NCBI GenBank assembly: GCA_035084275.1
Contig: CM068744.1
Coordinates: 103,106,001-103,170,000, forward strand
Direction of reading: 5' to 3'
Source of the DNA: Hydrolagus colliei
Taxonomy: Eukaryota
DNA length: 64,000 nt
The notes beneath the pieces were generated by a model that saw only the letters and a list, made by a program, of their open reading frames with translations, searched no databases and had not been told where the DNA came from. Below are positions 1-41,074 of this stretch, one piece after another. The stretch's first letter is position 1. The number at the start of each line of letters is the position of its first letter. The translations under genes were made by a program, and so were the position numbers.

Positions 1-2862
1 TAATATTAATGACACAATCACAAAATTAACACTATGTTCATCCACTTTACTACTTTGGATTATTAATTCAGGTTATACAAACTGAAAAAGAAAATACATA
101 AGTGTATCATTTTCAATAGTAGCTTATATGCATCTAATATTCAACTAAAGAAAAGCTGTGTTTTATTATTTATTCATTCTTATAATTTTAGGATCCTACT
201 TATGCCCTGTTCACCATCTTTTCAAATCTACATGTTGCAACTATCCAGCACTACGAATGTACTCCTATACAGTTTCCCCAATCCAAGACTTTACACAGTA
301 ATCTGTACTTTGATATGGCCATAGATAAAACCTTTCGGTTTTTACTTTTTTCTAATGTTCTTTGCGAATTCTGTATATTGTTGAAATAGTCCTGGATGAA
401 TAAGATGATCTGCCCCTTTCTATTCTCATGCCACATTAATACACATTGCTACTATTAAATAATAGGGTCCAAATTGCAGTGTTTTCCAACAGAATATCTT
501 ACGTAATTGTTTAGAGATCTTTGACTCATGGAAACTCTGAACCTTCATGATTATTGTAAGGAGATACTAGTAGCCTGATTTGAATTCCTTATTGAGGAAT
601 TCTGTTTGCTGCATTTTAGATCCGAATTTTCAAACAAGGGATATGAATGTAATAGTTTGAAGCTTTCTTTTATAAAACGTTGAACTTTTTTTCTCTTCGA
701 ATATGAGAGGATTCAATGGTTTTTCACAACTTGTAATTTTCGGACTAATTATATTTTATTTTAGTCTACTTGTGACCTAGGTAAACCTTAACACAAGAAT
801 GACAGTTCTTGGTTCGTATAATGGAGTGTGTTCTTAAAAAAAGTCACAGAAATCCTACAAACTGCTTGCACATGCCCTTTGGTGGTTGCAGTATTTTTTT
901 TACACTGGGTGACATCTGTTCAGGGGACTTGGTTACCAAATTAAGCAGAATGATAAATATTACAAAAAAGGTCAATCTAGCTTGAAGTACATTACCATCT
1001 TTCACAAGAATCCTACACCTGTCATGCTCTTAGATGAGGTGCTAATATGCTAATGAAGTCCTTAGAGGGTTAATCACTGCAGTCCATCAGCTTCAGGCTG
1101 GCTCCTCCTATTTCTGGCTGCAGCAAGCAGACTGTCACATTCCTCATTTCTATCAGTGAGTTTTAAATTGACCAGACAAACAAGCAGAACCAACGAGCTA
1201 GAAAAGGTCACACCTGGCGTGTGGTCGGCCTGCTCCCTGTGTCCAACGCCCCACCCACAATTCTCCAGGTTTCTGCCACTCTGTCTACTTCTCTTTTGTG
1301 TTTCCTTCCTTCCCCAGCTGTTCCATTCAGAAACCCAGGCTCAGCAATCTGCCCGCCTGAAACTACTTATTAAGCCAAGCTGGCTCGAAAGACGGGCTCA
1401 GCACGTGCCACTTCTTATCTCTCCAGTTTCAAAATCCAATTGCGTGGTGCTTAAAATACAAAACGTAAATGGACTTAACTCCCAGTGGTTCCCCTGAAGC
1501 AATCCAAACAAAAGCATGAGTGACAAAGACATTCTCCAATATGGCAGGTGTTAATGTCAGATTCAGCCCCGGGCACACAGGCAAAAGTATTAGCTTTCAG
1601 TTAAAGCTCAGACATGCAGAAAAAGGGAAGTACCATTAGTAGAGCAGTATTGTTAGTGCTACTACCTAGTCAGGTGTTAATTCCCAGCACCACTCGAACC
1701 AAAGCGCATCATTTTTAATTAGTAGCTGTGATAAGGTAGCAGTGAAGCTAGTTTTGCTCGCAACATAAAGGACAAGTTTATTAGTAAAGCATAGTCAACA
1801 AACTGGCAAGATGCACTCATTGTGCCCAATATAGTGGGAGCCTTACCTTTAACAATTACTGTAATCAGACCTTTAAATATTTAAATCTGGAGAGAGGGAG
1901 AGACACACAAAATACAAAATGAATTGAATACAAACAAAGCAGTTCCAACCAAATACACTGGGATTTAAACACAAAAGTTAATTTTAAAACAAAAAAAGGA
2001 TGCAAGCCTAATGAGAATATTTTATTCAAAGTACTCCCAGATTGCTAAAAGGAAATTACTAGATTTTTCTTTTCCTTTTTCCCTTGTCAAAAATGACAAA
2101 ATCTTTACTCGCCCTCCCTTAGGTCAGTCTGATAATGACACAATGGGAAGCGTTGACATATGTCCAAACCTGCTTTGTAGGAAATAGTGGGGAGTGTAAC
2201 TTCAAATAGTCTTGAGTGTGGAATTAGAACAACAGGATACCATACCATTGTCTGGGGAAGCAAAGAACCTCACATACAGCTTGTCTTCTCATACCTCCAG
2301 GTTTGTTCTTAGGTGGGTGTGGAGTGTTACTCCTATGTTTCTCAGAGTTATTTTGAGGTGTATTCAGAGTTAAAACATGAGGTGGCATCACTGGAGCTGA
2401 CTGGCAGGGAAGGAAGTCTCGATTCAACATTTATACAAAACCATGACAATAAATTTATCATCAAATTTTTCTCTTATAATTTGGGAGAGTACTTTGAATA
2501 AAACAACAATGCACCACCCCCGTCATTCAACACATAAGTTAGATTTAAATGATGCAATTCAACATTGAATGAAAATTTTCTAGCTTTTAAAAAAACTCGA
2601 GAATAATATTTAAATCCCAATAAAGTTTTACCTTACAGTCATATATATGCCTTTTCAAGTACATGATTAAAGTAAAATATTTAAAAACACAAAATAATTT
2701 GGATTTAATAATGAATTATATTGTAAACTATCAACTAGTGATCATTTTTTGCCACATAAGGTTAATTCAGGAGAAATAACATTGTATAAACTGCTGTGTA
2801 AATGTACTGCTTGTACAACCACATATGGAGGTGAATAATTGACTCCAAGTCACATACAGCTA

Positions 2863-10869: not shown

Positions 10870-10991
10870 CCATGTTACTGAGCGAGTAGCTTGGGGTAGG
10901 AGAGAAGACTTGAGCTGCAAAATCTTCAAATGTCATGATCTCTTTGTGTTGCTGAACTATTGCTTCAACGTACTGAGCTCTTTCTTCATAA
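10870..10991 (-). CDS. RALGAPA2: RALGAPA2 coding exon, 122 nt, phase 2/1: (F)[40 protein letters not shown]
   Basis: Not in the ORF track; manual translation. Frame joins the upstream exon exactly (TT+T=Phe); donor G|gtaagt. Matches recalled human RALGAPA2 C-terminus [38 protein letters not shown]. Confidence 0.95.
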
Positions 10992-13900
10992 CTGTACAGC
11001 AGGTTAAGGATATCTCCAGAAGCACAAACAAGTAAGCATATTAAACATCCTTAACACCGTGATTAAGCCCACTCTAAAAGTGAGTTCTTAATCAAAACAT
11101 AAATTACATTTTGTTAAGCGAGAACAAATACTTATGTATTGCAAACTCAATTTTTCCATTTCCATCTACTTGCAGTTTTTTCTTTATTTAATCAACATAG
11201 GTACTCTAAATTAAACTACTTAGATGACTTAAGTTCAGTGAAAGTAGATGTCACACACAATAACCAGCATGTATAATTATATCAGTAATACAACAGTTTT
11301 GTAAATCATTAGCAGTTTCACTTAAGCAGAATATATTTTGAAGTATCTAAATAGAAATGGAGGAAATTGATACCAGAATAACTACAGTTAAGTAGAAATG
11401 TCCACTCATATTTACAAGCCTTCTATTATTGCATATGTCTTCAGAATTTAACATGTTGACAAACATTCATCCCATACTGTAAGATGAGGGAACACCTGAG
11501 CAATACTATTTTTTTTAAGGCATATCTCCTCCAGATTACCTCATGGCTGTTGTGGGATATAGCTGGTGCATATGGTTGCTGCATTTGCCTACAAAATAGT
11601 CACTACACTTGACAGTAATTACCCATGAAGTGCTTTAAGACATTTTGACATGTTAAAGCGCTATAAAAACACATGCTCTTTCTTTCACATGCAAATCTTT
11701 GTGCAAGCAGTTCAACCCTAAGTGAGGAAGTGTTTTTCCACAGTCCACCTTTTAACAAAAATCTGGCTGGTGTGTGCCATAAACCTTGAATCAGTCAAAA
11801 CCATTTAAAATGAATTTAACATCGACACCTTAGGAAGAAGGCAATGCACCACTGCACAGTATTCAATTTCAGCAGCATCAAAGTTCATAATTAATGCACA
11901 TCAGACCTGCCACAAAATATTATTTAACCCAAGTTTAAAACTGAGAGAAAACAGCAGCAAAATACTACTCTCCCCCCCCACAAGAAATGCACTGTTAAAA
12001 ATCTCATGACATTATCTGCAATAAAACACCACTGAATTGCTTTCCTATGACCAGAGTAAAATTTGGAAGTGGTGCGGTAATCAAAACCAGTCACCAATAA
12101 GTTAAAATCATGACAGGGTTCAACAACCTGGCAGCTGCCCTAATAGGACCCCTGCTTGTAGCTGCTTTTCATGATGCATTGTGGAGAGCTTTTATTTTCT
12201 CTCTTTGTGTAAAGTTCCACAGAAGCAGTAACAAAATACAGTAATAAATCATGCACAAAATCCTGCTCCTTGTAAAACCTGATGCCATCGCCCATTCTCT
12301 TTCAGAGCGGCAAGTTGACGGACGCACCGATTCAGAAGCACTCAAACAAAACCAGACTACTTAACAGCGTTTCATGAAAAAAAGTCTGAAAATAAAATGA
12401 ATAAATTAACCTCAGCCATTTGCACCAAATGTTTTACTTTCATTTTGTAGTAAATGAATAATTGTCTCTTTCTTCAAATGTTTACTTTTTTGGGGTGGGC
12501 TTTGGGCTATATGAAATTTAGCAGAAACATTTTCTGTCAAACGAATTGTATGTGACATGCAATGGACTAGGAGAAAAGTCTTAAAACAGGGTTGTGTGAA
12601 ACACTCTCAAAAGGTCAAGTTGTGTAAGGTGGATCAGTGCACACCACATCGCAAGATATTTTATTTCACAATTCTTTCTAAGCTCATCAATAAACGGTAT
12701 AATTGAAACCTGGGCCAGTTTATTTATTGTTAGGCCATTGTCAAAAGAGACTCAAAATTCTGATGACCCAAGTTAATGAATAGCCTGCTTAATTTGGGAA
12801 GAGCAGGGGCACACATTCTCTGTCAATTCTGTAGGGACCAACTGATGCCATTCAGAAGTCATTAGGAGCCTTCTTTTCCTGCAATACATGCTGGCTGTTG
12901 CTAGGCCTCTTCACTCCATATTGCCACAGCAAGCCACTGGCCTCGTCAACAGCAGGCTGTTGGGCTGGTGTGTCCGTCTGGCGAACAGGCGCTTTGACAC
13001 TAAGCTGGCACGTGCTGTCGCAGCAGGAGTAGGCTTGGGCGTGACAAATTGTTGAAAGAGCTCAGCTAAAGTTGAGGCCGGGAGCCACCTGAGCCTCAAG
13101 TCCTCTATAGGCCTGTCATCAGTTGCCAATTCATTGCTTGGCCAATAGTCTGTAGTCAGCTTCTGGGCTGAGTTTAAACAAGGCAGAAACAATATAAAGC
13201 CCTTTCAGGAGATGGCTAATAACACCCTGCTGTTTAATGAAAGGCCCTGCATAACTAACACATAAGCATACAATGCAGCACACAACTGCTAACAAAACAG
13301 AGACATTCACTAAATAATGTATGCAAAGACAGTAAGACTCGGGGCTCCAAATTGATGTAGACCCAAATGATCTAGTACAATAGCCAGTTCACTTATGAAG
13401 GCAAGCAGCAGCCACTAATGTGGACCGTGACAACTTGCGTGATTTTGAAGGAAGCAGCAGGAACAATGGTACATTGCTGCATGTATGAGGACTTTTACCC
13501 AATTTATGCCTTAACCATTAAAGAACTCACAAATCTATTTGTTATATATAAACTAGGATAGGACTTAAGTCAAAATAATTTAGTTGATAAAAATAGCAAA
13601 AATTAAAGTATCTTTTAAGCTCTTTCTCGTAATAGATTTTAGTTTTTTCTTAAGGTTAAAGGAATAGATGAAAGCCATCCAATTTAATTTTACAACAAAA
13701 ACTCTGTAAATCAAAATTTTGAGATGAGTTACACCAAAAGTGAACTTTTCCCATTCTATTTGTTCAAAGCAGCTTTAGAAATACAAAGATGTTTCAATCC
13801 CTATACAAAAGGGTTTCTCTCAATACTCTACATATACAAATACATATTCTATTCGGTACCTGCTTATTGGATAATAATCTAAAATACTGAGGGATGAATG

Positions 13901-15494
13901 AAATATTTGTATTATCAGCATTAAATGTGATTACTGTTTTAAATGAGAAAAACGATTAAATCAAAATGATGAACAGAAGGATGAGTCCGTTAACATTATG
14001 ACAGCCTTAGACAATGACAATAATTCAAGATACGATATGCAGTTATACTCAATGTAAAGAATACTGAAGACATTTAAAAGAAATAACCATTCTTCTTTTG
14101 ATGCATAAATGAATTTTACAGAAGCAACCATTATCAAATTTTACATGAAAAATTCCTTTACAATTCAATTAATTCTTTATGTTGCAGCTTAGAGGCCAAC
14201 ACAGAATGCAAAAGGCACATCGAGTCCAGATTGCCATAGCAACTAGTGCCAATAAGAATGAGTCACTTTGGGGGTAAGTGCATTAGTGAACAACGTAAAC
14301 ACAGGCATGCAAAAAGGACACTTAATGAGAAATCCATCAAATGATTAATACTCAGTGAAAAGAGGGGAAAGTAGTAAAAATGAAGAAAGGATAGTAGCAC
14401 ACGATTCTTTCTGGTCTTTGTAAAATCAACCTTTAATAATAATTTAAAAAATCAAAGCTAAATGATAAAATAATTCTGCAGCATGGAACAAAATGTAAAT
14501 AAAACCATATGGCACACCAGTATCATAATCGCACATTTTTTTTGCAGGTCTGCTATTGAGAATTCTTGAGCAAATATTGATTGAAGTAGGAACAGATGTG
14601 ATTTCCGTCAGATAGGATACACCTACGCAGGAGGAACAGTTTGTTGCATGCTGGATAATCTAACAGAACTGGACAATGCAAGTAAAATTTGACTACTGGA
14701 AACAAAAATCTTGATTTGCCAAGCAATTTAAAGATGCTGAAGAAAGTAAAAGCTACAAAATATTCTTAAGTCAGCACTGCTACAGTACGTCCTACTGACC
14801 AAAATGCTCACTTGCCTGTTAAAATTACAACTGTACTTCAAACTGAAACAGTACCAATGAAACAATTTAATTTTGTTATTTGGGCCGACATGTTGTTTTC
14901 AGCCAGATAAAGTATACAGTGTGCATTAATTGGTGCAATTTCAGAAACTGTAATACAACCTTTAGTTTTATAAAAGCCATACTGAGTTTACAAAAGTGCT
15001 GAAACCACCTTGGGGAAGTAGGCTCACAGATTTATTTGGACCACCAGATCCCTCTACTTCTTCACTCCTTTTAGTTTTTTTGTCTCTCACTCCTGTAAGT
15101 ATTTTACTCTTCAGGCATTTACCTGAAAATCAAGGTTCACATTTATTGGGCATTAAACTGCCACTTCCTTTACCCGACCATTTTCTAGTCTATCTTAAGT
15201 CCTCACAAAGTCTTATGCTATTACTTTTTAAATACCTCGCAATTTAGTATCAACAAGCTTTACTGTTTCCCTCTTATATCCATGCATATTGCAGAACACA
15301 GTGGTGCTTTATAGACCCCCAGAGCACAACACAAGTTCCCTTCAATTGTTCCATTCTACCTGTCTGAAAAATATACATCATGTTTGTCCCTTATCTAATG
15401 TGTTCAACATACTTCAAAATAAATGTGACAGCAGTATTGGCATACTTTTAACAAAAACAGTGAGGACATTTTAGTGAAGATGATTTCCGATCTT

Positions 15495-15770
15495 TAACAA
15501 CAAATTGCATTTATATGGCATCTTTCATATTGGCTGCGTCCCAAAGTGCTGGATAGTCAAGAGTTTGCACCAGAGCTGGGGGTTGGAATCAAGAGGGTTG
15601 GGGGCAGGAGGATGACCAAAGGTCTTGAGACAGGCTTTAAAGGAGGTAAGAGAGGGGGCGAGGGGAAGGGCTTCCAGGATGGAGAGTGGGAGTAGAACTG
15701 CTTTCAGCACCTTGGGAAGTCCTCCTGACGTGAAAGGCGTTATACAATTTTGTTGTTGTTGTTGTTTGTT
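15495..15770. mobile_element. Two L2 LINE 3'-end fragments in opposite orientation
   Basis: Minus-strand tail aacaacaaattgcatttatatggc from about 15496; plus-strand tail gcaccttgggaagtcctcctgacgtgaaaggcgttat..(ttg)n at about 15706-15768. Confidence 0.75.
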
Positions 15771-15812
15771 CCAAACAAGAATACACAAACTTAAAGTTTT
15801 TTGGTATCAAAT

Positions 15813-15960
15813 TATAATAAGAATCCTTGCATTTGATATAGCCCCTTATCAACGTCATTGAGATGTCTCAAAGCGCTTCACAGAATATTACAAGGTGGAT
15901 TGACTGTATTTTGTGTTTGGATTGCATCCAAGTTTTGCATAGCAGTGTCGTGGATTGAGT
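15813..15960 (-). mobile_element. SINE 3' fragment
   Basis: aatccttgcatttgatatagc..gatgtctcaaagcgcttcacagaatat. Confidence 0.75.
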
Positions 15961-16671
15961 GGATTTATTTTTAATAAATAATCTTTGGATTACATCCAAC
16001 AGCAGTTTCTACAAAATAAGAATATAGGCAAAATGTCATCCTCCATAATATTGGATAATTATTTTGAGTCAGCAATTATTACCGTATCCCAATGATTATA
16101 GATGATTTCAACTAAAGGTCAGCTGTACGAGTGATGTCAGAATACGAAAGTACAGTTCCTGTATATCACTAGTAAGTAATGATAAATGCTATCTTGGTGA
16201 GGGGGATTAAATGCAGTAACCAAGATTGGAATTTGAGAGAATGAGGGCATGGTCGGAGAACCCCAGTGTCAATCTTAGATGCACATAGGTTTTGCAAAAC
16301 ATGGAGTAATCATACTGAATAGAAGTGCTTTACACTGAGGTGTTGAGTGACCACAACAGTAACCTCAGGCTGCCTGTGCATCCTGCCTTCTCAACAGATA
16401 TTTTAGATGGCTGTGATGATTCACTTCTATCTACATTGTACGTTGTTGACTGCTCTCAAATTATGTTCTGTTATTCCTCAAATGTTTGGAATGGGAGAAC
16501 AGCGATCCCAACACTTAATATAATTAGCCTTACATTGAATGTAGCATCTTAAAGTGCTTCACATAATACACTGCAAAATAATTTGTATTTTGTGGTCACT
16601 TTGCAGCATTTCTAATCTATATGCACTTCCTTGACATAATCTGTATATATCCAAATGTATGGTGGATGATT

Positions 16672-16988
16672 TAATAATAATAATCCTTGCATTTGATATA
16701 TGTAGCACTTTTTACATCTTATCGACGTCTCAAAGAGCTTCACAGAATATACTGTAAAGTGAATTGACTGTATATTTGTGGGTGAAACGTGGCAGCCAAT
16801 TGCGCACAGCAGTGTCCCACAAACAGTCTTAGATTAAAATGACTAATTTTTATTATAGATATTGTGTTTTTTGGGGGACGGATTATTATTTGGCGTGTGG
16901 AGTAAAGAAACCTGCCCTGATCTACCTGGATTCGAACACAGGTCTCACACTTGTAAGGTGAGTGCTCTAACCACTGAGCTACAGGATA
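16672..16988 (-). mobile_element. Near full-length tRNA-derived SINE (Deu-domain-like body, L2-type tail)
   Basis: Minus strand head tcctgtagctcagtggttagagc (A box) and gttcgaatcc (B box); body tgtttgtgggacactgctgtgcgcaattggctgcc; (ATT)n tail. Confidence 0.88.
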
Positions 16989-17235
16989 TCCAACTCTAAC
17001 ACTACAGTCATGACAGACCGACCGTCAGTCAGTCTCATGACCTAGATAAGCCCAAACATCCTTCAACTGAATACTAACTAAACGGATACAATTTTGCTCA
17101 AGTCTCACTGAGCCTGCTCAACACTGTCTCAGAGTGTATCAGCCTCCCTTGTGTCTGTTCACTCCATCTCATAGAAACAATGGAATTTTGTTTTTTTTCC
17201 TTGGCTATCCCTTAAGCTTTTTAACTTGTCATTAC

Positions 17236-17445
17236 AAATGATCCTTGCATTTAACACGGCACTCACCACATTGGCAAGCTGTCTCAAGTGCTTCAGCAGA
17301 TTTACTGTTAAATATAGTAACTGTGTATTTTGAGGGTGAACATAGTAGTCAATCTATGTGCAGCAAAGTCCCATAAACAACCTTGACGTGAATAACCAAT
17401 TTTACCCAGGGGAGCTGTTGCCCAGGACACGAGAATTCTTTGAAC
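17236..17445 (-). mobile_element. Degenerate SINE copy
   Basis: atccttgcattt..gtctcaagtgcttc..gtgcagcaaagtcccataaacaa. Confidence 0.6.
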
Positions 17446-18029
17446 TATCCAACAAGGAATCCCCGATAATACACATAAGTTTTACAACAAGCATATTTGC
17501 AAATATTTTATCAGCTAATTTTCTGCTTAAAGTGATCTAAAATAATTTCTAAAAAGGTTTAAAGTATATTTTTTCATTCATTATATAGTAATGCAAAAAA
17601 TGTTTCCTCCTATAAAGAATTACCTATTTTGTTACATAAATCAACTTTTGTGTTTGGTGTCCACCCCTGGTATCTTCTTTCCAGTCCTGAAATTTGGGGG
17701 GTTTCTAACTGGTCTTATGGCAGTAAGCAAAACACTTCAAATTGCAGAAGTGAGAATTTATTTGAGCATTTTATTAAAATCAGAATTTCCCTCATATATG
17801 TCTGGTACTTTTTTTTCCCTTTTTTTCTTTAACAATAATGTTTTATACTCAAGAACAAAACATTCATCCAATAATGAATAATTTAGCAGGAAAAATTTAA
17901 AAAAAGAATGTAGAATCACAATGTAGAAATAAACAAAAAATCTTGAGCCCCCACCCCCCCATCCCAGGATACATCTGTACCAGATAATTTATCTTCCATT
18001 CTAAATTATCTTCAGAATTAGGGCCCATG

Positions 18030-18370
18030 AAATTAACGGCAATAAATTAGCATGGATTGAAGAGTGGCTAATAGGAAGAAAGCAGAGAGTAGGGATAAAT
18101 GTTCTATAATATACAATATAACATTCTATAAATGTTCCTCAGATTGGCAGGATGTGACTACTGGAGTGCCACAAGGATCAAGCTTGGGCCTCAACTACTT
18201 ACAATCTATACCAATGATCTAGACGAGGATATATAACTTAAAATACCTAAATTCGCGGATGATACAAACCTAGGTAGGAGAGTAAGCTCCGAGGATGACA
18301 CAAAAAGAATGCAACAGGATGTAGGTAGTCGAGATGGGTGGGCTAGAAGGTGGCAAATGGAATATAAGTG
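18030..18370 (+). mobile_element. Degenerate CR1 LINE RT fragment
   Basis: Broken frames read LAWIEEWL..RKQRVGIN, GVPQGS.LGP, NDLDE, KFADDT.LG. Confidence 0.85.
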
Positions 18371-21300
18371 CATAATCCATTAAACTAACTCCTATTGTAA
18401 AGTGTTGGCTGTCTTCCCTTAATCCACAGTCTCACAGAGCGAAGTGTCATCTGCAAATTAAAATACCTTACACTTATGAAAATCCATTTCATATCTGGGA
18501 CCAGGAAGAATCCCCAACACAAACACCTCAATAACTCCCTTATTCCCTTATCTAGATCCCCTACAACTGTACCAAAGATATGGTTTCATTAACTGTTATC
18601 ATGTACAAAAAAAGCAAATAGTTTTAAAAACAAGAAGCCAGTATTTGAGACACTTTGCTTTTTCAGAGACATTATAGAACAATTTACTGTATAACAAGAT
18701 TCAAGTGTTTAACATTTTAAAATATGTTAAGTAAGACACATTAACAGTATTTTGCAATGTTGATGCTGAGCTAACTAGGTCAGTTGTCTTAATAGATCAA
18801 CTAGACCAAGTGTCTTGACACTGCAGTCATAATTTGAGAGATTCTGCATATATCTGTCTTAAAGGAATTGACCTGTATGTGTAAATGAGACCGATTTCAA
18901 CTACAGCTAGAATATTAAATGTGTTCCATTTATTCTAATAAATATATCTGGAATTTCCATGTACAGGTGGAGCAAAGAAACTCTTGTTTGTTTTAGATAC
19001 TTAGGAGATTGGTGATGGGTTTCCGTATTGTATTCTCCACCCGGGTGATCCAAAAGAAATCTTGGCCCTTGACCAAGTTGCTTTGCACTGAATTTTTATT
19101 TTATTTTATTAAAGGCTCTGTAGGATACCTTTAAAAAGCAGTGAAGCTGTGGCCAAATTTCGATGCGGGGCAAGTAATATTTCTTCCTGCCCTTGCCAAT
19201 TAGTTTGAGACATTCAATCAGTCCGTTTGCCAGTTTCAGAAGACAAATAAGAGCAAAAAACCTACTTCTTACCCAATGCAATAGGAAACATTTCTAAATA
19301 CATGATGTACCACAATCGTATTACTGCAAATTTTGCAGGCCATATCCACCCAGAATATTTTAAGATACCTATTAGAAAATACTGTATGCATCATCTTCGT
19401 ATTGTTTTTACAATACATTGCCTGTATACAGTTGACTAACAAGTTGCTTCACAAGAATTTTCCACCAAGTGGCCTTGCTGTGTGCAGCATTTAACTATGA
19501 AGAGCTTTGAGACATTGATGTTAGACACAATGTATCAAGTACTTGTTAGTCCAAAGGTATATTAGCGCCTTATGTCAAAATTCTCAAAGTAGCTCGCAAA
19601 ATTTCTGTAAAGTGTAGTGACTGCGTTATTCTAATAAAATGCCAAACTGCAATTTTTTTAAAATCTGAGAGATTGTTGGCCAGGAGACTAGGAGAAACTC
19701 CTCTCATTCTGAAGAGTGTTGTAGGATCTATTCAGTTCCCTTGTGAATTGTCTAAAGCAATCTGCCGTACTCTGAGAGTCTATTCTACATTTGTCACAAA
19801 TTCACTACATTGTAGTAAAGTAACTGAATCTGAACCAGAGATGTCACCACCGACCATTTTGAGCTTGAGACCATAACCAACTAACGACAACAAACAATTA
19901 ACAAACTAACTCCTTGTATCCGATATTATTTTCTGTATACAGTTCAACCTTCAAACATGTCTACTCCTTGAAAGGACACCTGCCTGTGGAGCCAAAACAA
20001 CATTTGATACAAGTGGATGTAATCTATTGATATAGGTCAGGGAAGCTCTGAGGATAATATGACAGGAGCCATGAAGTATTCCCAGTAATCAAGAGGAGTG
20101 TTTCTAAATCAAATTATAGACTTTATTTTAATGCTGGTGATATCTGAGGTAGATTTTACTGTTCAAGAGTGTTGTACAAAATGACATTTACTCAATTGTC
20201 GGCTAACTGTCATAATCAGTACCTATGGGTCCAGACACACTTTTCCTGAAACCTAATTGTAATGATTGAAATTTGTAATCACAAAAATATAAAATTAGCT
20301 CAAATTATACAGATTGTTAGTGGATAAAATTGTACATCTTCAAAAATGAACAAGCCATAAGCAGAGTACACATCATAGTAATAATATCCAACTCATAAAA
20401 TCAATTCAAATCATAGCAAACTTTTTATGGCTGATAATTTCTTGTGCTTGAAACAATGCTTTAATGCTAGGTTGACAATAACTGAGGTATATTAAATGTG
20501 TTTAAATAACATTTGATATAGCAAGAGATCTCTTATGGAAAGGTAATTGCTTATTCAAACAAAGGGTTAAACTGCAGTATAAACTATGCCAATGTCAGAG
20601 CATTACCAAGCATACCACAGATGCCCATATCCTGCATGGAATTCGTCCCTTCAAGTCATTAGAATGCTGTAAACATCTAATTAATTTCATCAGATCACAA
20701 GCCTTAATGAAGTGTTAACAGCCAATGCAGTGAGAGACTATGTACAGAAGGCATATGGAGCTGCATTCATGTATAGTAAAATTATCCCATTGCCTTGTAA
20801 ACCCTTGCCCAACAGGTATTCAATAATGCCACCAGTCCATATGGCTGCATTATCTCTCCCCTCTACTTTAGCTATGAAATCAGATTCCCCTTCCCAAGGT
20901 TTAAAAATACATTCTGGGTGACTTAAAAATGACAAGGTTCAAGTCATTAAGAAAAATAACATTTCAAAATTTATTAATTGGTTTTCAAAAAAAAGCTTTT
21001 CTTTTTCAATTCAATGTTTTTAATGGACTTTAAGCAGGATGCAAAGAATAGAGCAGATAACATGATATATAAAACGTCAGCATCAGCAGCAAGCACACCT
21101 TGTAAACTCAACAAATAACACTGCTGTATCACGCAAATACGCTCATCTATCCGTATTCCTCAAAAGGATTCAGTGTGACCCATATTAGATTTGCAGTCTT
21201 TAATTTACTGAGAGAAAGCAAAATCTTTGCTTCCAGTTTATTTACAAAATAGACGTATTTTCAGTAGTACTCAGAGAACCCGTAGTCCTGCCAGCACAGA

Positions 21301-22179
21301 AGCAGCACGTGGTTTTATGAATCTGGGGTGCTGACTGTTGTCACAAAACAATGTTAGAATGATGGAACTCTCAAAACGCCTTATTGGCACATGTATTCTG
21401 TGCTTCTCAGTTCATTTTATACAAAATATGCCTACTGATGCTAAAAATGCAGTACTGTACAAATTAAGGGTACCATTGAGTGAAAGTTGGCCACATTGGA
21501 ATGTTTTGCAGTACAAATTCAAAGAGGAAATCAACAAAGCTAACCTGTGGTGGGGGAGGGATGACATAAGCAACAATTAGATAAAATAGGGCTTCTGATC
21601 CTTTTTGTCTGAGTTGAAATCAAATCAAAGATCCTCGCACTCTCTCCTTACCTAATGTATCTTTTCTCAGGAGTTCATGACTATAAAACATCCTCCTAGT
21701 CTTTTAAAATTAAATCCTGATCTAACCTGACAGATGTGTCCTGTCCTCTCAAACTCCTTCAGACGTGGTTATGTTCTGCACTGTAAACTTGCCCTTTTAT
21801 TCAGGGTTTCTGATGAAATACACATTCCTTGGTGCTAGGTAGCTTGCATCAATTCATAAACATATGGTCAATGTGAATCATGTCAGCCTTCAGCACAACA
21901 TGGAACACCAGACAGTGTTGACTAGTGAAGTTGTTTTAGTTTTTTTTTAAATTAAGCACAAAACGCGTCAACAACAACTTCGCAAAACCCATTTTTGGAT
22001 ATTCATGTTAATTAACCATGTTTGTATGGCTGGGTAGATTGACCGCATTTGGTAATATAGGAATTAGTCCAGTTTCTCCTCATCAAGTGCAGCAAGACTG
22101 AACTGTTCAGTAATGTGAAAACTGGCACGTATGCATGTTGGTGGAGAGCTAATGTTCATTGAAGCAGTTGCCCATTAGC

Positions 22180-23756
22180 CCACTCCTCATCAGGCTCCAC
22201 AGGCTCCTTGACAGCAAATTGATTTCAAGATCCTTAACCTCACCTACAAATCCTTTCACATTCTAACACCTACCTCTCTCTGATCTCGTCCCCCCCCACT
22301 CTATTCATCACCGCTGACTGCCTTCCTTGGGATTGTTGTGCACAACTGCCCTACCGATAAAACCAATTCAGACAGAGCTTTCCAGTTCATTGGCCCTAAC
22401 CTCTCCCTTCTGTGTCTTTAAAACCTACCTCTTCAATTGTGTTTATGATCACCTCTGCTTTTGCTCCTTCCCTTCTGGTTGGCATCTGCTTTTGCCACTG
22501 TAATGCGTTTCTGTGATCAGGGTTCTCTGCCTCCTTGTCCTCCTCGACCTCTCTGCTGCTTTCCACCGCTCAATCCTCCTACACCGTCTCTACTCCCAGC
22601 TCAATCTTACGGACCTGCCCTTACCTGGTTCAACTTTTACCTTTCTCACAGTATCCATTTTGTTGCCACCAACCGCTTCTCTTCCAGTCCCTGCAATGTC
22701 ACCTGTGGCATCCCCAGGGCTCTGTGCTTGGCCCATACTTAACACCTACATGCTTCCCCTTGGTGATCATCTGCAGACATGGGGTACGTGGATGACACCC
22801 AACTCTATCTTTTTGCCTCTACCCTCAACTCCAGGACCACTACCTAGTAGTGGTACTAGGTAGTGGTTGTGACAGACATTAAGTCCTGGATGAGAGCTAA
22901 CTTTCTACAGTTGAATGTCAACAAGACTGAGGCCCTCCTGATTGGCTCACACCAGTGCCTTCAGGCATCAGCAGCATCAACCTCTATGGTTGCACACTCA
23001 ACCTCACCAAGCCAGTCAGGAACCTAGGTGTCTTGTTCAATCCTTAACAATCTTTCCTCCCTCACATCCAAGCAATGACCCGCTCTGCTTTCCATTACTC
23101 TGTAATTGGTCGATCCTGCCATTACCTCAACACCCAGGCCTTTGAAACCCTCATTCACGCCTCCATCACATCCAGGCTCGACTATGCCAATGCCCTGCTT
23201 AATTGGCCTTCCCAATTCCTCCCTCCATAGGTTGCAGATAATCTAGAATTCTGCGGCTGAAGTCCTCTACCGCTCCAAGCTTCGTGACCCCAACTCCCCC
23301 ATCCTCGCCCAACTCCATTGGCTCCCTATCACCCAGAGGATCCAATTCAAGACCCTGGTTCTCACATTCAAAGTCCTCCATAGCCTCGCCCCACCCTATC
23401 TCTATGACCACCTAACCCCCTACTAATCTGCCCACTGCTCCACGTGCTCTGGCCTGCTCCATGTCCCCCGATCCACCCACCCCACCATTGGCGGGCGAGC
23501 TTTCAGCACTCTACCCCCAACCTCTGGAACTCCTTCCCGCAGTCCCTCCGCCTTGCTCGGTCCCTGGCCTCCTCAAAGTCTTGACTCAAGACCCCTCTCT
23601 TCGACGGTCCCATCAGTCACCCCAAATCCCCCCACTTTCCCTCCATCCTCCACGTACCCAAGCCCAGCTCGGGTCTGAAACAATGACTGTCCAGCGCCTT
23701 GGGATGTCCTCCTAACGTGAAAAGCGCTATACAAGTGTAATTTTGTTGTTATTGTT
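22180..23756 (+). mobile_element. L2 LINE 3' fragments (older 22180-22460; longer 22512-23756 with tail)
   Basis: [30 protein letters not shown] motifs in broken frames; tail gcgccttgggatgtcctcctaacgtgaaaagcgctat..(ttg)n. Confidence 0.88.
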
Positions 23757-23799
23757 AGAGAAATACCCAACAAAAACCTTATTATGCCTTGACTGAATT

Positions 23800-24180
23800 C
23801 AAAACAACAAAATCACATGTATAAAGTGTGGTTCATGTTGGTAGGACATCCCAATGTGTTGAACAGTCAGTTGTAGGGGATAATGTTTGGATGAGGGAGT
23901 GCAAAAGGGTAGGAAGGTGGCTGAAGGAATGGTCAAAACAGAGGGTTTTGAGTCATACCTTGAAGGTGGCAAGAGAGGGAGCAAGCCAAGGGCTGGTGTT
24001 CCAAAGAGTGGGGGAGGAGAAGCTGAAAAGCCAGCCGCCAAACATAGGGTGGGAGACCTGGAGCAGGCCAGAGCCTGCTGAGCAGAGGGAGTGGACAGGT
24101 TCATACGGTGGCGAAGGGGTCAGCAAGTAAGAGATGTAAGTGGGGGCAAGACCCAGGTGGGTCTTTAAAGTGAGGACGAG
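23800..24180 (-). mobile_element. L2 LINE 3' fragment
   Basis: ORF 23953..24213 LVLTLK..GLAPTY..FSFSSPTLWN; (caa)n tail at left. Confidence 0.85.
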
Positions 24181-26526
24181 TTTATTTAAAAAACCTACAA
24201 TAGCTTGATTCAACTTGTCTCTAATATCTGCCCAACATAAACTGAGGCTTGTAGTGCTTATGCCTCATGTTTGGTGAAGCATTTATTGTCAGTAGAGCTC
24301 AGGTATATCAAAGCTATTGTGTTTGGGGACAGCAGGTGCTGATTGGCAATTCGCAGGCATGTGTGAAAAGGACTTCTTGTCACGCAAAGTCTTCATGTAA
24401 AGATTATTCCGGTGGAAAGATCAAGATGAAAGCACTTGGTTGTTCCCTGTGATTACAAGAGACAAATCCCTCGGCCAGCTTTTCGCTGAGATCAGTGTAA
24501 CAATGTAACTAGTCCCATTTTATCACTATATGTAGAGGTGCCGATGGTCATGTTGTCTAATTATCCAACATGTTCTGTGAGAAAGATGCTCATCAGGGGA
24601 AAGAAATTAGAAACAAGGGCAAATGTAACTGTACAGCAAACTCCCCATGCACTTTATTACAGTTTTTAATCTCAGCTAAATTGCTGACGAGATACACCTA
24701 GTCCCAATATTTAATGAGCTTTCTCTCCCAAGCCTTTGGCAACAGGGTGACTGTAGTTTAATTAAACCTCTGGGATTTTGTTATCGTAAACCAGTGTCAA
24801 GAGTTCCTCATTTAGCACAACTTGATAATCAGCAGATAAACCCAACACCTTAAGTAGGAAAAAGGAGCTATAATGCAATCAAATGTACTTAAGCAATCAT
24901 CAGCGGCATTAAGAGGCTATGTGGATTTTCTGTTATAACAATGAAGTATTCCTTCAGATTTTATATGCATTCACAGAATTTTGATATTTCATCCTTTTAT
25001 ACTGTACAGGTATATGGAATGGCACTTTATCTAATCAGTAAAAAAAAAGTTTATTTATGAGTAAACCAAAAAACACTCTCCACAAATAGGAATGCTAATA
25101 TAGTTGTGCAGACAGTGTTTTCTCAATTTATAACCCATCCCTATATTATCACTACATTCTATTGGTGATAATATTGGTCAATTGGTAGCAGATTTCTGGC
25201 ATTACTTACACAGTAATGGGCCCAGAAGCTCTCTCTGTCATCACATACTACCACAAATCATCCCCACCACTAGCCTTGTTCATATTGGCATCCATCTATA
25301 ATTATCCCAAAACAAGCTTCTTCACGTACAAAATAGTTACTGCAGCGGCAGAAAATGTAAGAATGATGAGCTATTGCAGTCCTATGGATATCTTAGGAGT
25401 TTTTAACATAGAGTTCTATAATTATTATTTATATTTCCCATAATTATAATGAAACACAAAATTACAATATGAAAATCACTGCCTTTATGTGCATGAGACA
25501 ACACGCTTCTATATATTATAAATGTTTTCCATGCATTTTAAGATTGTTATAGTTTAACTTGCAAGTGGATTGCTGAACATCTGTGCTCCTCATGAATAAT
25601 CATCAATATTTCCCCAAATCAAACCTAAAGCAGTCAGGATGTGCACCCATCTGAATCTGGGTAATTAACATACAGAGTTGAAATAGATGAGGATGTGGGC
25701 AGTGGATTTTTGTATGAGGTAAATCTTGTGCATGATGTAACTGAGGAGAACCAGTGAGGGATATATCTGAGAAGTCAAGTCAGTAAGTACAGTACTTGTA
25801 TTTAATGCTGGAATTCTAGCATATGTGAATCTCAACTGGCATGCATCAAATTGTAAACCATATTACTTTGACTGAAATTTTTGAAATGCATATGACCCAA
25901 GTTCTTCAAACAGTGTCATTATGATAATCCAAAGCTTTGTTTGCAGTTCTCTTCTCAACTAAATGAAAAGGTTCCACTACATTCATTTTTGTACAGCAAC
26001 CCAGTTTTCTCCATCTGCCATAGATGCCAGTCCGAATGCACAATATGACCTCCTGCCAAATGACTCTCTCAAAACTGCAGCAAAACATAGCAACTCAATT
26101 TGGTTTTGGAAATGAAAACACATTACAGAGCATTGCATGAGTATCAAGACCCATTCTCAACAAAATTATACTCTTAATTCAGTTTAATGTTTCTTTATAG
26201 AACCATGAAAATTACAGGATTGGACAGAGCCAGGAGGCCACTTGGTTTATTGAACCAAATCTGATGTTAGCTCATCCACGAGAGATAACTACAGCAGTGT
26301 CGATTATCCACATTAATCAGGACTGGCCCAATTGCGGATAAGCAAACAATAGAGACAATTTCACAAAATGTTAAATAGATGTAGCTACATCTGGAGTTGT
26401 ACGGTTACAAAGCTAGCCATGTTTTCTCTCACCCACCCAAGGGAATCTCCAGCTCCATTTCTCATCCTTCCTCTCTATTTATATCTCCCTTCTCCCCTCT
26501 CTCTAAAGAGTTTCAAGAACTTTCTA

Positions 26527-26883
26527 CAGTGAGAGACCATTTATCCTGCACCCCCCGGGGGTCAACTAATTGACTGTGTCGGATAATCGGGCGGCAAGTT
26601 GCCAAAAACCCAGCACAATAAAATTACTTATTTCAAAACATACCATATTAATAATACACTAAATAGTAACAGAATATTGTAGGAAAACTTACCAATAAAG
26701 ATTTCAGCACACTCGGTAAAATGATTGGTAAAAACCCAGAGTTCGTCAGTTTAATAAGTGCGTATTAAATGCATTGTGCGCAGGCACAAAGTGAGCATAC
26801 TTGCGATTGCTGGAATGGGGAATTGCCCCAGGAGGAAATCGCGCAATTGGTTGATTGGGTCACGGATAAACGGGCTTTTACTG
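26527..26883 (-). mobile_element. Tigger/pogo-like MITE, same TIR family as 40121 and 63185
   Basis: TA-CAGTGAGAGACCATTTATCC ... CACGGATAAACGGGCTTTTACTG-TA. Confidence 0.8.
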
Positions 26884-26929
26884 TACCTCTTTCTTTACAA
26901 TAAATGACGTATACATGTCAAAATCAAAA

Positions 26930-27092
26930 TCAGCGTTTCGTCCACAAATATACAGGCAATTTTCCTATTCTTCTTCATCCATCCCTGAGCCCTCCCCCCT
27001 GCTCTTGTCCCTACCTAACTGTACAGCACCTTGGGACGTACTCTCGATGGGAAAGGCACTATGTAAATGTTAAGTTTTGATTGATTGATTTG
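26930..27092 (+). mobile_element. SINE variant 3' part with C-rich insert and L2-like tail
   Basis: gcgtttcgtccacaaatatacaggcaatt + pyrimidine tract + gcaccttgggacgtactctcgatgggaaaggcactat + (gatt)n. Confidence 0.6.
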
Positions 27093-27574
27093 ACGTGCAT
27101 ACTCTAATTTCTAATTCCATCATTTCTATCCTTTGGTATTGCTACTCTTCAGGATACTATAAATACCTTTTAATTGTACGGAAAAGTTGCCATAAACTAA
27201 TAGCCCACTGCATGAAAGTTGCTTCCAACCTCCCACTAATCCTGAATTTACACCCCCCTTTTGTTACCAATTTACTAAGTTTTTAAAATAGAAGAAAAAT
27301 ATTTTAAAATAGATTAATTTTGAGAAAGTGTAGCATATATTCAATACAATTGCAAATATACAATGATATGTAGAATATAGATTGTATGCCAGTGGTTTAG
27401 TGAAAATAAAGAAAATTGGCAAAACAATATCATCATGTAGAAACTGAAAAAGAACTTCAGGCACATGGCAGACCATCAATTTAGATAATAGCAGCTGGAA
27501 GTACTCTCACACATCATTGTCCTTCCTTTATTCCACCATCACTACACTGTCAACTATGCTCAGTACATTAGCTA

Positions 27575-27725
27575 TAATAGTAATCCTTGCATTTGACGTC
27601 TTATCACGTCTTCGAGATGTCTCAAAGCGCATCACAAGTTATATTGTAAAGTGAGTTGACTACTGTATGTATTTTGTGGGCAAAATGCAGCACACAATTG
27701 AACACAGCAGTATCCTGCAAATAGT
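27575..27725 (-). mobile_element. SINE 3' fragment
   Basis: taatccttgcatttg..gatgtctcaaagcgc..cacagcagtatcc. Confidence 0.75.
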
Positions 27726-29719
27726 CATGGATGGAGTGACCAACATATTATTTTAAAAAAATGATTTATAGTAAATAAGAAACAATAAATGAATCCCATC
27801 TCCACCCCTACCCCAAAAAAATTAAGATCAGCATGTGATATGTAATTCTCTAGGTGGCATTGATCAACTAATTGAGCTTTGCTTCTCGTGCTTTGAGTTA
27901 TCAAAACTGTCCAAAAATCACAAGCTATTTGGTTTCCTATGTTCAAAATATTGGAAATGTACGGCCATCGTGCGCAACATTCTGGGATAGAGTCCTATTT
28001 CCAGGACTATTTCCTTGAGCACTATAATATTTTTTGTTGCCTAAAAAATTGATGTGCATATGAAGAACACCATCAATTTAAATTTTTTTAAAATGAATAC
28101 TTTTACCCCGGGCTACTGGGAAAGAAGCAGTTGGTAAGTTTCCTCATACTGGTTTACACTGTACTACATAGCTTTGTATAGTGGCACAGTGAAACAGAAA
28201 TTACGTGAAATTAATTTAAAGATTAAATCCTTTCAAACTAAACTTTCAGGGCTATTGTGACTGAAGGCTACAGGCAACATAGAGCTGTGGGATGAGAAAA
28301 TAGACTGAAATTTCACTGCAATGAGATCTGCAGGGTCCAAACCTTGGAATGCCGAGCACTTTCGGATGTCCTTGCGACGTGAAAGGCAACGTACAGATAG
28401 AAATTTGTTGTTGCTGTTTTATAAGATATGGGATATGGCAGACAAAAATGCACGCTCACCCAACAAACATTTGAAAATTGTAATTAAAAATGCAATTATG
28501 CAGCAGCCTGACGAAACTGATAATGCAGCATTTCTAAAATCAGCACCACAGACAGCTCCTTTTGATAAATGCTACAGAGCAGAGCTCTGCCACCAGAAAT
28601 CAACTTAGGTAACAGCAGCTGGAGTTACTTGTTGCTGTGGTGACAAGGAACTTGGGACTGCTACCGATGTAGAAGCTGCCATGAGGGAAAATGCAAGAGA
28701 CTGAAACAAAGACACATGCTTTGGATTTTTAAAATGCTACGAAAAATTGTGCAAACATATCACTAATTTCTCTTCAATTTCAGTGTACTGGTTAGTTTTA
28801 TAAACAATGCAGGGAAATTTGCGATACAGATCATTTTTTGATTTTCTAAAAGTAAGATGCCAATTTGTAGCAAATCCAAATATAAGACAAGGCCAAAGGT
28901 TTTATTCTCATTCACATCCAGAAATGGAGATAGATGGAGCTCATTACTTTGAATTGCAATCAATCATTTTTTTTGCAGTGATTTCAGAAATGATTGTTCT
29001 ATTCAAACAACTTCCAAGTACTCAATTCAAAGATGTACATATTGTGCTTCAATACTCCCAATGCAAACCAATTTTAATCAAATGTAGTTCATAATGATCC
29101 AAAATTGTGAATGTTATTGTACATCTAAACAACAAAGTTAAGAGAGATAACAACAACAATAAAATTACATTTGTAGAGTGTCTTTCTCGATGATTGCTTT
29201 ATAAATAAGAACAGGATATACTGGTATGGTTAATCCTGGTCATCTGATACATTTTCAGTGGCCATTTTGTCTCTAACAATTAACAATTGCTTAGCATACT
29301 CTATTTTTTTCTGATATCCAACCCACCCTTGCTGTGTTACTTGGGTTCAGCTTGGTTCTTTCAGTTAAGTGAAGAATTTACCTACTCCCTCTTGAGACTC
29401 CACAGAATGAGTCCACCCTTTAAGTCCCACTGAAGAGACAGATTGATTACTCATCACCAGGAGTGGTACCGTTGCCCAGGCACCTTTTTGGCAGATAGGA
29501 GACTGACATACTTGGAAACCCCCTCAACATTCAGTGTCAAATGCAAGATGAGAACTCCCATAAGCAGTAGTTCTTGTTTGTCAGTACTGGAGTGTGCAAC
29601 CCTCTCCTGGGGTAAATGGAAGAAACACAAATACATAAAGTATAATTTGTTTATGCCTGGAGAACATAAATACATAAAAGAAAACAAAATGTGCACTATG
29701 CAGAATGGATATCCCAGTA

Positions 29720-30090
29720 TGCTTCAGAGAATCTAGTGTAAATTGTTGTACTTGTGTATTTTGCAGCCAAACATAGCAGCCAGTTTACAAATAGCAATGT
29801 CCCACAAACAACCATGAAGTGAATGATAAATATTATTTGGGGGCTTGTTGGCTAGGAGATTGGGAGATACTCTTCTCTTTTTGAATAGTGTCATGGATCT
29901 TTAACATCCACCTAACAGAAGGGACTTCAGTTTTATGTGTCACCTGAAGGACAGCACCTCTAACAATGTAATACACACCTTTAAGTCCTGCACTGGAGCA
30001 CCAGCCTAGATTATATGAGGTCCACATCCCAATAATGTGCTTAAACCCACAACCTTCTGAATCAAGGGGTGAGAGTGCTACCACCTGACA
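29720..30090 (-). mobile_element. Older Deu-domain SINE (SacSINE1/SINE3-like)
   Basis: gcaatgtcccacaaaca..gaatagtgtcatggatctttaacatccacct..aaggacagcacctctaacaatg..cccacaaccttctga..gagagtgctacc; family assignment from recall. Confidence 0.75.
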
Positions 30091-32274
30091 CACAAATCTA
30101 CAGACATCATGTGTGTTAATTCCTAATGCCTAATGCAATGCTGTATTAGATAATTCATCAAATATTTAAATTCAATTTTGCTTATTAAAAGAGCAAATAT
30201 AAGATTGCCTCAATCTGCAGAAATGCCATGAGGTGTAGAATGGAACCTAATATAATAACATAAATGAATTGTAATTTGGCGCCATTAAACATTATTTAGA
30301 TTATTGTCAGAATCATTAAATTACTTATTAAATAGGTTGTTGCAATTGACTGGGGAATTTAGAGGAAAAAACAGTTACTGTTACAGGTTATCTTTTCCTC
30401 ATTCATTGAAATCATGGGCCAAACCCTATGTAAAAAGATAATATTGACAAGATGCACTAAAAAATTACTTAGGAGAACTGCATTTTGTGAAAAAAAACTA
30501 TCATGCAATATTTCCATCAATCTGCTATGATAGTAGTGGAATCACCCTAATCATGTATGTCAAGTGGTCAAGATGACAAAAAAAAATCAATAGGATAAGA
30601 ATGTGTTGGTTGATACTAGAAAATAAACTTTGAAAGACTGGACAGGCTTTTAAAGAAAACTTCTTTCCATGAGCTGATCCTGTAGAATAATAATCCTTGC
30701 ATTTGATATAGACCTTTTCACGTCTTCCAGACAAGGATATGGAAATATAGAAAAGCATATGGTAATCTTGGCTGTTTTCCCATTAGTCAGAACAATAATA
30801 AATCTGAAAAGTGAATGGTTAGGAGAATTTTTTTGTTATCCTACTGCATCATTGGCTAGACTCAGGGGAATTCTTGAACACAGAGACAATCAGAACAAGC
30901 CAGTGAAAATATGCAAGTTATTCATTAAAGAAACAAAGTTGGCATTGTTGAAGGTTCCCGGTTAATGAATTCAGAGGAAGATAGTTTCCTTCACAATTAG
31001 ATATTTAGTTAAATAGTCATAATTGTGCCTGAATACAAGACATAACAGCTTCAAATGCAAGAAAGTGAGTCTGAAATAAAAACAATTGTGTAGTGCCAAA
31101 ATGTTAAACTTTAAAACACCTATGTTGTACATCAAGAAAGAATATTCAGGACTTTGTTGCTTTCTAATTTATTGCTACATTTTAATTTGTTGAGGTCACT
31201 TAGGTTATCAACTGGCGTCACTTTAATTGCAGCATTGTTTTAGAAAAGTAAAACCATCAAGCTTAACCCAAGTGGATTGCTGATGATTATCAAGAAGAGG
31301 CTTGCTTCCCTTTTCATATACAAGTAGCAGTGGCATGACTGGCAGAAGGGTTCAGAGAATCATTAGCAGATGGGATCTACTATCAACTTCTCATAAGCTG
31401 TTCAATCAGGCATAATTCTGGTTAAAAACCAAGATTGCAATTTATTGCCCCACACTGAGACCAAAAGAACATCTTGTACATGGACGATACAGAAGCGTAT
31501 ATGAAAAAAATACCTGCACTGAGGCAGTGATAATCTAGAGCAAAATGAGGGAGAAGGAAAGAAAGGCAACTTGCACATTTGCAGCAGCCTTCTAATCCTT
31601 GCCCCAAGCCATACTGTGCAGTCAGCCTGTCTATTGCAAGGCAACAATTAAGCAGCCAGAGCAGAACACCTGGTACTCACAATCCTGAGCCTTCTGTGGC
31701 AGCTGACTGCAAACAACTCCCTGCAAGGTGGTTGTGTCTCTCATACACTTGCTTGCCAGTCTGGGGGGTAAATAAAGACCATTTTTCTTCATCTTGTTAT
31801 TCTGAAAGCCATTCACCCGTAGAATTTGATTCAAAACTCAAAAAGAAAAGCGCCAAAGCTTAAAATCTCAACATAATGCAACTCACCAGTATTTTTAAAT
31901 CTATTGGGTGCTAAATTTCCTTTGTATTTTCAAAACAAAATGCAGTTTTGAAGAAAGTTTTGAAAAAAAACATACACCTGATGTTGATTGTGTAAGTAAA
32001 ATTAGAGGAATGTGCAAAACAATATACCATTATTATTCTATGATTAAACTGAAAACTGTCATTATAAACTTGAGTTAAAAAAGCAACACTCTTCATAGGA
32101 TTCATTACTCAAAAAAAGGGTTACCAAGTACGGTAATACAACTTATTGGTTTATATTGCCAAACTGCAGTAAGACATCTTTAAAATTGATTTCATTTTTA
32201 GATTTAAATAGAATTTGAACTAACATATTATTTGTGAATAGTTGGGGTTAAGAAGTTGTAATTTATATTGTTGG

Positions 32275-32591
32275 ATAATAACAATAATCCTTGCAATTGA
32301 TGAAGCGCTTTTCACGTCTTCTAGACATCTCAAAGCGCTTCAAAGAAAATACTGTAAAGTGAATTGACTGTATATGTGTGGGCGAAACACAGCAGCCAAT
32401 TACACACAGAGGTGTCCCCCAAACAGTTGTGGATTGAAGTGACCAATTTATCAATTTATTTATTTTTTCTTGAGGGATTATTATCAGATATATGGAGTTA
32501 GGAAACGTGCCCAAGGTTTCGCCCTGCTAGAAATCAAACCAAGGTTTCTCGCTTGCGAGGAGAATGCTCCAACCACTGAGCTACAAGACTC
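32275..32591 (-). mobile_element. Full-length tRNA-derived SINE
   Basis: Head gagtcttgtagctcagtggttggagc; same body and tail as 16672. Confidence 0.88.
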
Positions 32592-34714: not shown

Positions 34715-34925
34715 CTTCAGCCACTCTGCCCCCACCCTCTGGAACTCCATCATGCATCCCTCCGCCTTGCCTCCTTCAAGACCCTCCTCTTTGACCATGC
34801 CTTCTATCACCCTCCTCCTCCCACCGTCTTCGATCTTAGCTGGGATGTAAAACACTGTCCAGCGCTGGGACATCATCCTGACGTGAAAGGTGCTAACAAA
34901 TCAAAATGTTGTTGGTGTTGTTATT
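34715..34925 (+). mobile_element. L2 LINE 3' fragment
   Basis: gcccccaccctctggaactcc..gacgtgaaaggtgcta..(ttg)n. Confidence 0.8.
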
Positions 34926-40120: not shown

Positions 40121-40679
40121 CAGTAAAAGCCCGTTTATCCGTGACTCGATCCACCGGTACTTCCGTATAACCGGCACGCCCAAAAAAAGTCCCCATTCGA
40201 TAAACCGGAACTTATCCGGAAAAATAGCAGCGGAGCATTTGTAAATGCATAAATAATAACATAACAACACAATATTGTAACTTATTGTTAAAATTACTCT
40301 CTTGCGCTTTTTACCTTTGCTAGTAGATGCTGCGCTTGAAGCCATGATGCTGCGGTTGAGGTTTATAGTCCAGTGATTCTTTTTAAAATGGAGCACGCCA
40401 AGCAGGTGAAAAAAACGGAGCGCGTATGACTTTAATACTAGTACTAGTGGCAAGCCGATAACGGTAGCCGATAACCCACATTGGTGCAAGAGAGTAGTTT
40501 TAACAATAAGTACCAATATAACATTCTGTTATTACTTAGTCTGGTGTGTATGGTGTGTGTTAAAAGAAATTTAAATTTTTTTGTTGTGGGTTTTCGGCCG
40601 TGGGCCGCTCGAATATCTGGCAGGTGCTTTAACCGGTATTCGCCAGGTCCTGCGGGTGCCGATAAACGGGCTTCCACTA
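40121..40679 (-). mobile_element. Tigger/pogo-family deletion derivative retaining the transposase N-terminus
   Basis: TA-CAGTAAAAGCCCGTTTATCC ... GATAAACGGGCTTCCACTA-TA; minus ORF contains MASSAASTSKGKKRKRVILTI, a Tigger/CENP-B-like start. Confidence 0.85.
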
Positions 40680-41074
40680 TACTTCAATTTAAAAAAAACT
40701 ATTGTAGTGCTATCTTTCAGCTCAAAATGTATATTTCATCGAAATGCTTAAAATTTATACTGTATTCAAAGTAAATTTATCCACATAATGTACAACCAAT
40801 AAACAAATTATTAACTTATGGCAATGGTACCTTGATTTGAGTAATTAATACTGTACGTCAAAATATTTCCAGGACAATTGATGTCCAAACTAGAGTAAAT
40901 GCTAAGTGCGAGAAAATAATCCCAAATCAGTAAAGAGTGAAAAATCACCCATTTGCCAGAAGCTATTATATTAATTCAAAATGCTGAATTTTTCAATGAG
41001 GAAATTGAATACAATGTTAACACAAGACAGATACTTCAGAATTACTCTACACACAGATTCGTAGAAAAGGATAC

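Follow-up and report, generated by a model that had tools for sequence, protein, structure and literature searches.

Complementary intronic regions that steer splicing are defined by conservation above the background and by compensatory changes, and U12 snRNA is established to base-pair with the branch motif of U12-type (minor) introns. The closest described systems are engineered: in a theophylline splice switch, ligand-induced masking of the branch point blocked splicing (PMC2275289), and 13-bp stems designed to cover the branch site of a yeast intron lowered splicing, with destabilising mutations arising under selection (PMC12637734). Open branch sites go together with splicing in plant nuclei (PMC7784297), and in human cells the order and timing of splicing are related to the structure potential around splice sites (10.1101/2021.10.18.464728). 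In the literature covered, by title and opening of the abstract, there was no natural structure over a U12 branch site, no natural branch-site decoy in a minor intron and nothing on the RALGAPA2 minor intron, most subscription papers lying outside it.

The stem analysed here lies in a window of 64,000 nucleotides from Hydrolagus colliei (organism A), whose positions are used throughout (Table 1). It resembles the engineered systems in that a helix of similar length lies over a branch sequence, where it would compete with the branch-binding snRNA. Those systems (PMC2275289, PMC12637734) are U2-type and have measured effects, with a tetraloop in the yeast stems, whereas the RALGAPA2 stem is natural, U12-type, closed by a 27-nt loop, and known as a sequence and a predicted fold. 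With the conserved complementary regions it shares intronic complementary segments that overlap a splicing signal, but neither conservation above background nor compensation was found across four organisms.

Table 1. Positions of the RALGAPA2 minor intron, its flanking exons and the predicted structures at its 3' end (window coordinates)
Feature	Position	Strand	Remarks
GT-AG U12-type intron of RALGAPA2	10992..41074	minus	30,083 nt, phase 2; 5' site and branch motif; spliced reads and contigs
Exon 5' of the minor intron	41075..41202	minus	end of the Pfam Rap_GAP match
Exon 3' of the minor intron	10870..10991	minus	122 nt; last-but-one coding exon; both boundaries are RNA loose ends
Last coding exon, start	1873..1886	minus	four codons and stop; RNA loose ends at 10870 located in the window
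5' arm ('anti-branch-point' segment)	11043..11055	minus	core 11055-11048, outer part 11047-11043
3' arm	11003..11015	minus	holds the branch motif TCCTTAAC (11010-11003)
Stem loop, 27 nt	11016..11042	minus	predicted fold
Second predicted hairpin	11061..11093	minus	14 pairs; -11.3 kcal/mol in isolation; just 5' of the stem

The intron bearing the stem is a U12-type GT-AG intron of RALGAPA2. Its downstream exon corresponds to residues 1859-1897 of RALGAPA2 chain 9qwp_A (E 1.3e-15) and encodes 40 aa close to the C-terminus. U12-type introns carry an extended 5' splice site with the consensus RTATCCTTT and a branch motif near the 3' site, without a pyrimidine tract in between. Both signals were found: GTATCCTTTT at 41074, immediately after the coding exon, has the form of a U12-type 5' site, and the U12-type branch motif TCCTTAAC lies 11 nt from the exon with no pyrimidine tract separating them, the 3' AG ending at 10992. 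The branch adenosine would be that at 11005 or 11004. The downstream exon had been described as the final GAP-domain exon, which proved incorrect: Pfam Rap_GAP matches three exons preceding the minor intron and not the downstream exon, and the latter is the last but one to be coding. RALGAPA1 is among the human genes listed as having a minor intron (PMC7507305). Compared with RALGAPA minor introns, the 5' site, the branch motif, the short branch-to-AG distance and the used junction are all the same here; there is no difference of class, and all that sets this intron apart is the fold predicted for its 3' end.

Two minor observations concern the same intron and its surroundings. The branch region reads AG|ATATCCTT on the minus strand (11013-11006), a match to the AT-AC-type donor consensus that overlaps with the branch motif and is likely a by-product of the TCCTT common to both minor-intron signals; re-splicing from this donor-like site at 11013 was rejected, as only 22 nt are left before the exon. 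The window also holds intronic open frames at 44316-44884 and 7969-8470 (both minus strand), which by eye we take to be decayed LINE reverse-transcriptase and DNA-transposon fragments.

The junction joining 41075 to 10991 is used in the RNA of three relatives, organisms B, D and E. In B, six reads join both exons and 0 of 14 aligned reads enter either flanking intron; these reads come from a polyA library, of which about 27% of one run was covered, and are uninformative on nuclear retention or splicing rate. The 30 letters of B beyond the 3' site are identical to window 41075-41104, and RNA contigs of D and E (one each) are spliced at the same point as in B. This junction evidence is thin and polyA-derived, and comes from organisms other than the window's own, with weaker stems. 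Together with the 9qwp_A match and the two splicing signals, it bears out the gene and intron class given in the original prediction. In D, the RNA contigs cover 11163-11494 as well as the downstream intron but not 10992-11146, a pattern in which contig gaps prove nothing and depth cannot rank retention. One D contig (10620-10899) extends from the exon into the downstream intron, which is U2-type; it may represent a retained intron, pre-mRNA, an alternative 3' end or DNA, which contigs cannot separate.

The stem was confirmed in the sequence and in the fold as 13 bp, 11 of them Watson-Crick and two G-U (11046:11012 and 11044:11014), around the 27-nt spacer originally described. The folding check proposed for it gave a positive result: when 11100-10980 was folded, all 13 pairs appeared both in the MFE structure (-33 kcal/mol) and in the centroid. 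The fold has z -3.28, with 0 of 200 shuffles equally stable, a z-score that is not from the stem alone, since the second hairpin, absent from the original proposal, contributes. In isolation the stem reaches -15.0 kcal/mol on the transcribed strand vs -8.1 kcal/mol on the opposite strand. Of the two G-U pairs taken to favour structure at the RNA level, that at 11046 occurs only in A and is U.U in B, C and D. Opening the 8-nt branch motif is predicted to cost 9.3-11.7 kcal/mol at 37 °C across five window sizes, with a mean unpaired probability of 0.002-0.004, and 11.8-13.6 kcal/mol at 5 °C. A stable helix is thus predicted over the branch site, and the occlusion originally foreseen stands as a prediction, its opening cost being put here at about 10 kcal/mol.

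An alternative partner had been suggested for the 5' arm, namely the U12-type 5' splice site, which lies 30 kb upstream, a pairing that would join the intron ends or block U11/U6atac. The arm is complementary to both signals through the common TCCTT, and the duplex is predicted at -8.6 kcal/mol. The local partner is much stronger (-17.4 kcal/mol) and is transcribed 40 nt after the arm, against a distance of 30,083 nt to the 5' site. In C and D, the changes at 11046 and 11047 also cost the long-range duplex some of its pairing, shortening it further. Such pairing is very improbable.

The main rival explanation is that the stem is a lineage-restricted brake competing with U12 snRNA and lowering both the rate of intron removal and the level of full-length RALGAPA2. 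As proposed, the arm would emerge about 40 nt ahead of the branch site, and the helix would fold as the RNA is made, enclosing the branch adenosines. The opening costs at both temperatures favour this explanation, as do the prediction of the stem in every transcript prefix tested, the core pairs present in four of four organisms, and the inhibition of U2-type splicing by branch-site sequestration (PMC2275289, PMC12637734). Because the next intron is U2-type, failure to splice would give retention and not exon skipping; a retained minor intron would meet a stop codon 9 codons into the intron. Weighing against it are the lack of constraint above background and of compensation, a spread of 6 kcal/mol among close relatives, the absence of the stem from the paralogue, and the lack of unspliced RNA among the few polyA-library reads of B; no trigger or second state was identified. 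On balance we regard a brake as unlikely, and the two other rivals, the 5'-site pairing and the two-hairpin structure discussed below, as weaker still. A related version, which we consider distinctly doubtful, has a natural cis mimic of U12 snRNA masking its own branch site and setting how fast the RALGAPA2 minor intron is spliced; the mask would have been adjusted step by step within a single vertebrate lineage (predicted opening cost 4-10 kcal/mol over four species) and would be stronger in the cold. Of the original proposal that a cis decoy throttles or switches splicing, what remains is that a brake is physically plausible, judging from the designed yeast stems (PMC12637734); a selected decoy or switch is unsupported. 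If the stem did act as a brake, RNA structure in cis would be able to set the splicing rate of a single minor intron, and the four natural versions would form a stability series for the handling of a paired branch site by the U11/U12 di-snRNP.

The conservation and covariation check, proposed along with the original observation, gave no support to a selected decoy or switch. Organism A was compared over the stem with DNA contigs of B, C and D, four close organisms and hence a comparison of low power; runs X7 and X9 did not reach the stem. The 3' arm and the branch motif are identical in all four. The 5' arm has changed at 3 of 13 sites: besides 11046 in B, C and D, position 11047 differs in C and D (U-A to C.A) and 11052 in D (A-U to G.U), so that two changes break a pair and one stays paired as G-U. 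The outer pairs are broken in all three relatives and the contiguous 13-bp helix is lost in 3/3, while the 8-bp core still pairs throughout. No compensatory change was found in B, C or D, a weak test given that the 3' arm is invariant and held by the branch consensus. The loop has two differences in D, and one difference plus a 5-nt insertion in C. In D, the sites changed number 3/13 in the arm and 1/8 in the core vs 19/200 in 11101-11300, a background of about 10%; across these four close organisms, the pairing partner is not conserved above its intronic surroundings. When the 29 observed substitutions were placed at random, with indels left out, the core remained unbroken with P=0.53.

Change at the background rate, without compensation and with loss of the helix in relatives, gives no sign of selection, and since conservation does not exceed the background, the stem is not classed as a regulatory structure. 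The predicted opening cost falls with distance from A (A 10.3, B 8.0, C 6.6 and D 4.3 kcal/mol), and this steady fall is to be expected where an extreme case has been picked out. Folding predicts an occluded branch site for A, B and C, with a mean unpaired probability of 0.002-0.007, and a partly occluded one for D (0.19). A predicted mask of 4-8 kcal/mol is compatible with splicing in related organisms. We therefore consider that the 13-bp stem is probably a chance inverted repeat, neutrally drifting and tolerated, rather than a decoy or switch under selection. As a feature of the sequence, the inverted repeat does exist.

The second hairpin upstream (11093-11061) adds a further alternative, in which it makes up a single local structure with the stem (11055-11003). 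This structure would be under weak conservation for some other role, such as concealing splice-site look-alikes or binding a protein, with branch masking as a side effect. The upstream hairpin encloses a branch-like CUUAA (CTTAA) at 11067 and a YAG at 11076, the signals that would be hidden, and both hairpins are in the MFE of all four organisms. It varies in D only, by one change in a bulge and one G-U to A-U change, and no pair is broken in B, C or D; under the same neutral scatter, the stem core and the upstream hairpin are both unbroken with P=0.07. The upstream hairpin taken alone, however, remains unbroken by chance with P=0.15, D diverges at 8/85 positions in 11016-11100 vs 19/200 farther upstream, and no Rfam family comes near its cut-off. 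The seven Rfam matches in 10600-11800 have E values of 2.5-9, all far below the gathering cut-off, and none indicates a known intronic ncRNA (snoRNA, miRNA or other). A shared structure of this kind is improbable.

How often a stem this strong would arise by chance was estimated in three ways, all with the same geometry. When real segments of the window were joined to the native 3' end, 6 of 1,524 grafts matched the native opening cost, as did 16 of 1,587 random 8-nt sites and 1 of 97 genomic TTTTCCTTAAC..YAG sites (a strong branch-like motif followed by YAG); the last are look-alike loci among the 100 matches listed out of 149, and most of them are not real intron ends. At those genomic sites, the level reached by D (4.3 kcal/mol) was attained by 11/97 among the matches listed. 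For one intron, the stem therefore falls in the top 0.4-1%, above chance. Human minor introns number 722 (PMC7507305). Over about 700 minor introns, the same per-intron rate leads to an expectation of about 3-7 stems this strong per genome by chance, selection ignored, so that the stem is not above chance in a genome-wide scan.

Other minor-intron ends provided a direct comparison. An intron also interrupts the paralogous RALGAPA1-like locus (L002:1490-1503, G000 C17) at this position; its branch-like motif (ACTTAAC) is weaker, and it lacks the anti-element. No such stem is present at the homologous intron there (opening cost 1.3) or in a fish RALGAPA1-like locus (L021; 0.7), nor at the end of an AT-AC intron (L045; 1.5); a fourth intron end (L112), which we take to be from a MYB-family gene, has an open branch motif (1.0). 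None of these four likely real minor-intron ends is structured like the RALGAPA2 stem, in a control set that amounts to a handful of likely ends, with both ends checked in L045 only. The L045 intron (2047-2520, plus strand) is about 470 nt long, carries both minor-class signals and belongs to a sodium/proton exchanger gene (PF00999 locus). A metagenome scan for distant RALGAPA2 introns yielded five loci and no RALGAPA2 intron. Two RALGAPA-like metagenome loci, apparently invertebrate (L022:~720-789 and L023:~1190-1274), have a short intron with a U2-type donor at the same codon position, and a third (L020) has no intron there; this pattern likely reflects U12-to-U2 conversion and loss of an old intron.

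The short branch motif contains the palindrome TTAA, and an 8-nt complement likely arose within the last 60 nt of the intron in an ancestor of the four organisms. Later point changes likely lengthened the complement in the lineage of this genome, and this would be the reason that the stem stands out here. In the nucleus, a helix with a 27-nt loop may be opened or prevented by proteins on the nascent RNA, by helicases or by binding of the U11/U12 di-snRNP; both this route and the neutrality of the stem are what we infer. The intron would be removed well enough, with any delay too slight for selection to act on in either direction. Several findings run against neutrality: the core has persisted across about 10% intronic divergence with the branch site predicted occluded in A, B and C, at each of the three arm sites where D and A differ, the letter in A is the one more favourable to the stem, the core and the upstream hairpin are both unbroken with P=0.07, and 0/4 likely real minor-intron ends are so structured. 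Moreover, since designed stems lower splicing in yeast (PMC12637734), selection might act against a stem that really forms, which makes its persistence slightly surprising. If chance is indeed the origin, the result calls for caution: predicted branch-site masks of this strength would be expected in about 1 of every 100-250 minor introns, and such stems therefore need conservation or a functional test before they are counted.

Candidate origins and wider roles for the 5' arm were also considered. Origin from a repeat was rejected, the 341-nt stretch matching only itself and the paralogous exon in its own genome in a weak search that skips common words. The U12 snRNA of the genome was not found by a family search in which 43 of 63,191 candidates were scored, nor by two short motifs, one without a match and the other with a single match that is not U12. 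The arm-plus-motif pattern gave 24 strand matches in 17 loci vs 87 for the control, and hence no enrichment among the matches listed, none of which lies on contigs C4, C5 or C7-C12, part of the genome being possibly outside the search. A general anti-branch element of minor introns was rejected: of the 16 other loci with arm and motif, five lack AG/AC or an open frame of at least 20 aa after the motif, and 12 frames from the remaining 11 had no Pfam match, a weak test in that the true exon also has none. One further locus (L076, G000:C1:88563017-88563039, minus strand) holds a 14-bp near-perfect hairpin between a TTTTCCTTAAC motif and the sequence just downstream, with an opening cost of 14.8 kcal/mol and no evident exon, an example of a similar stem arising elsewhere.
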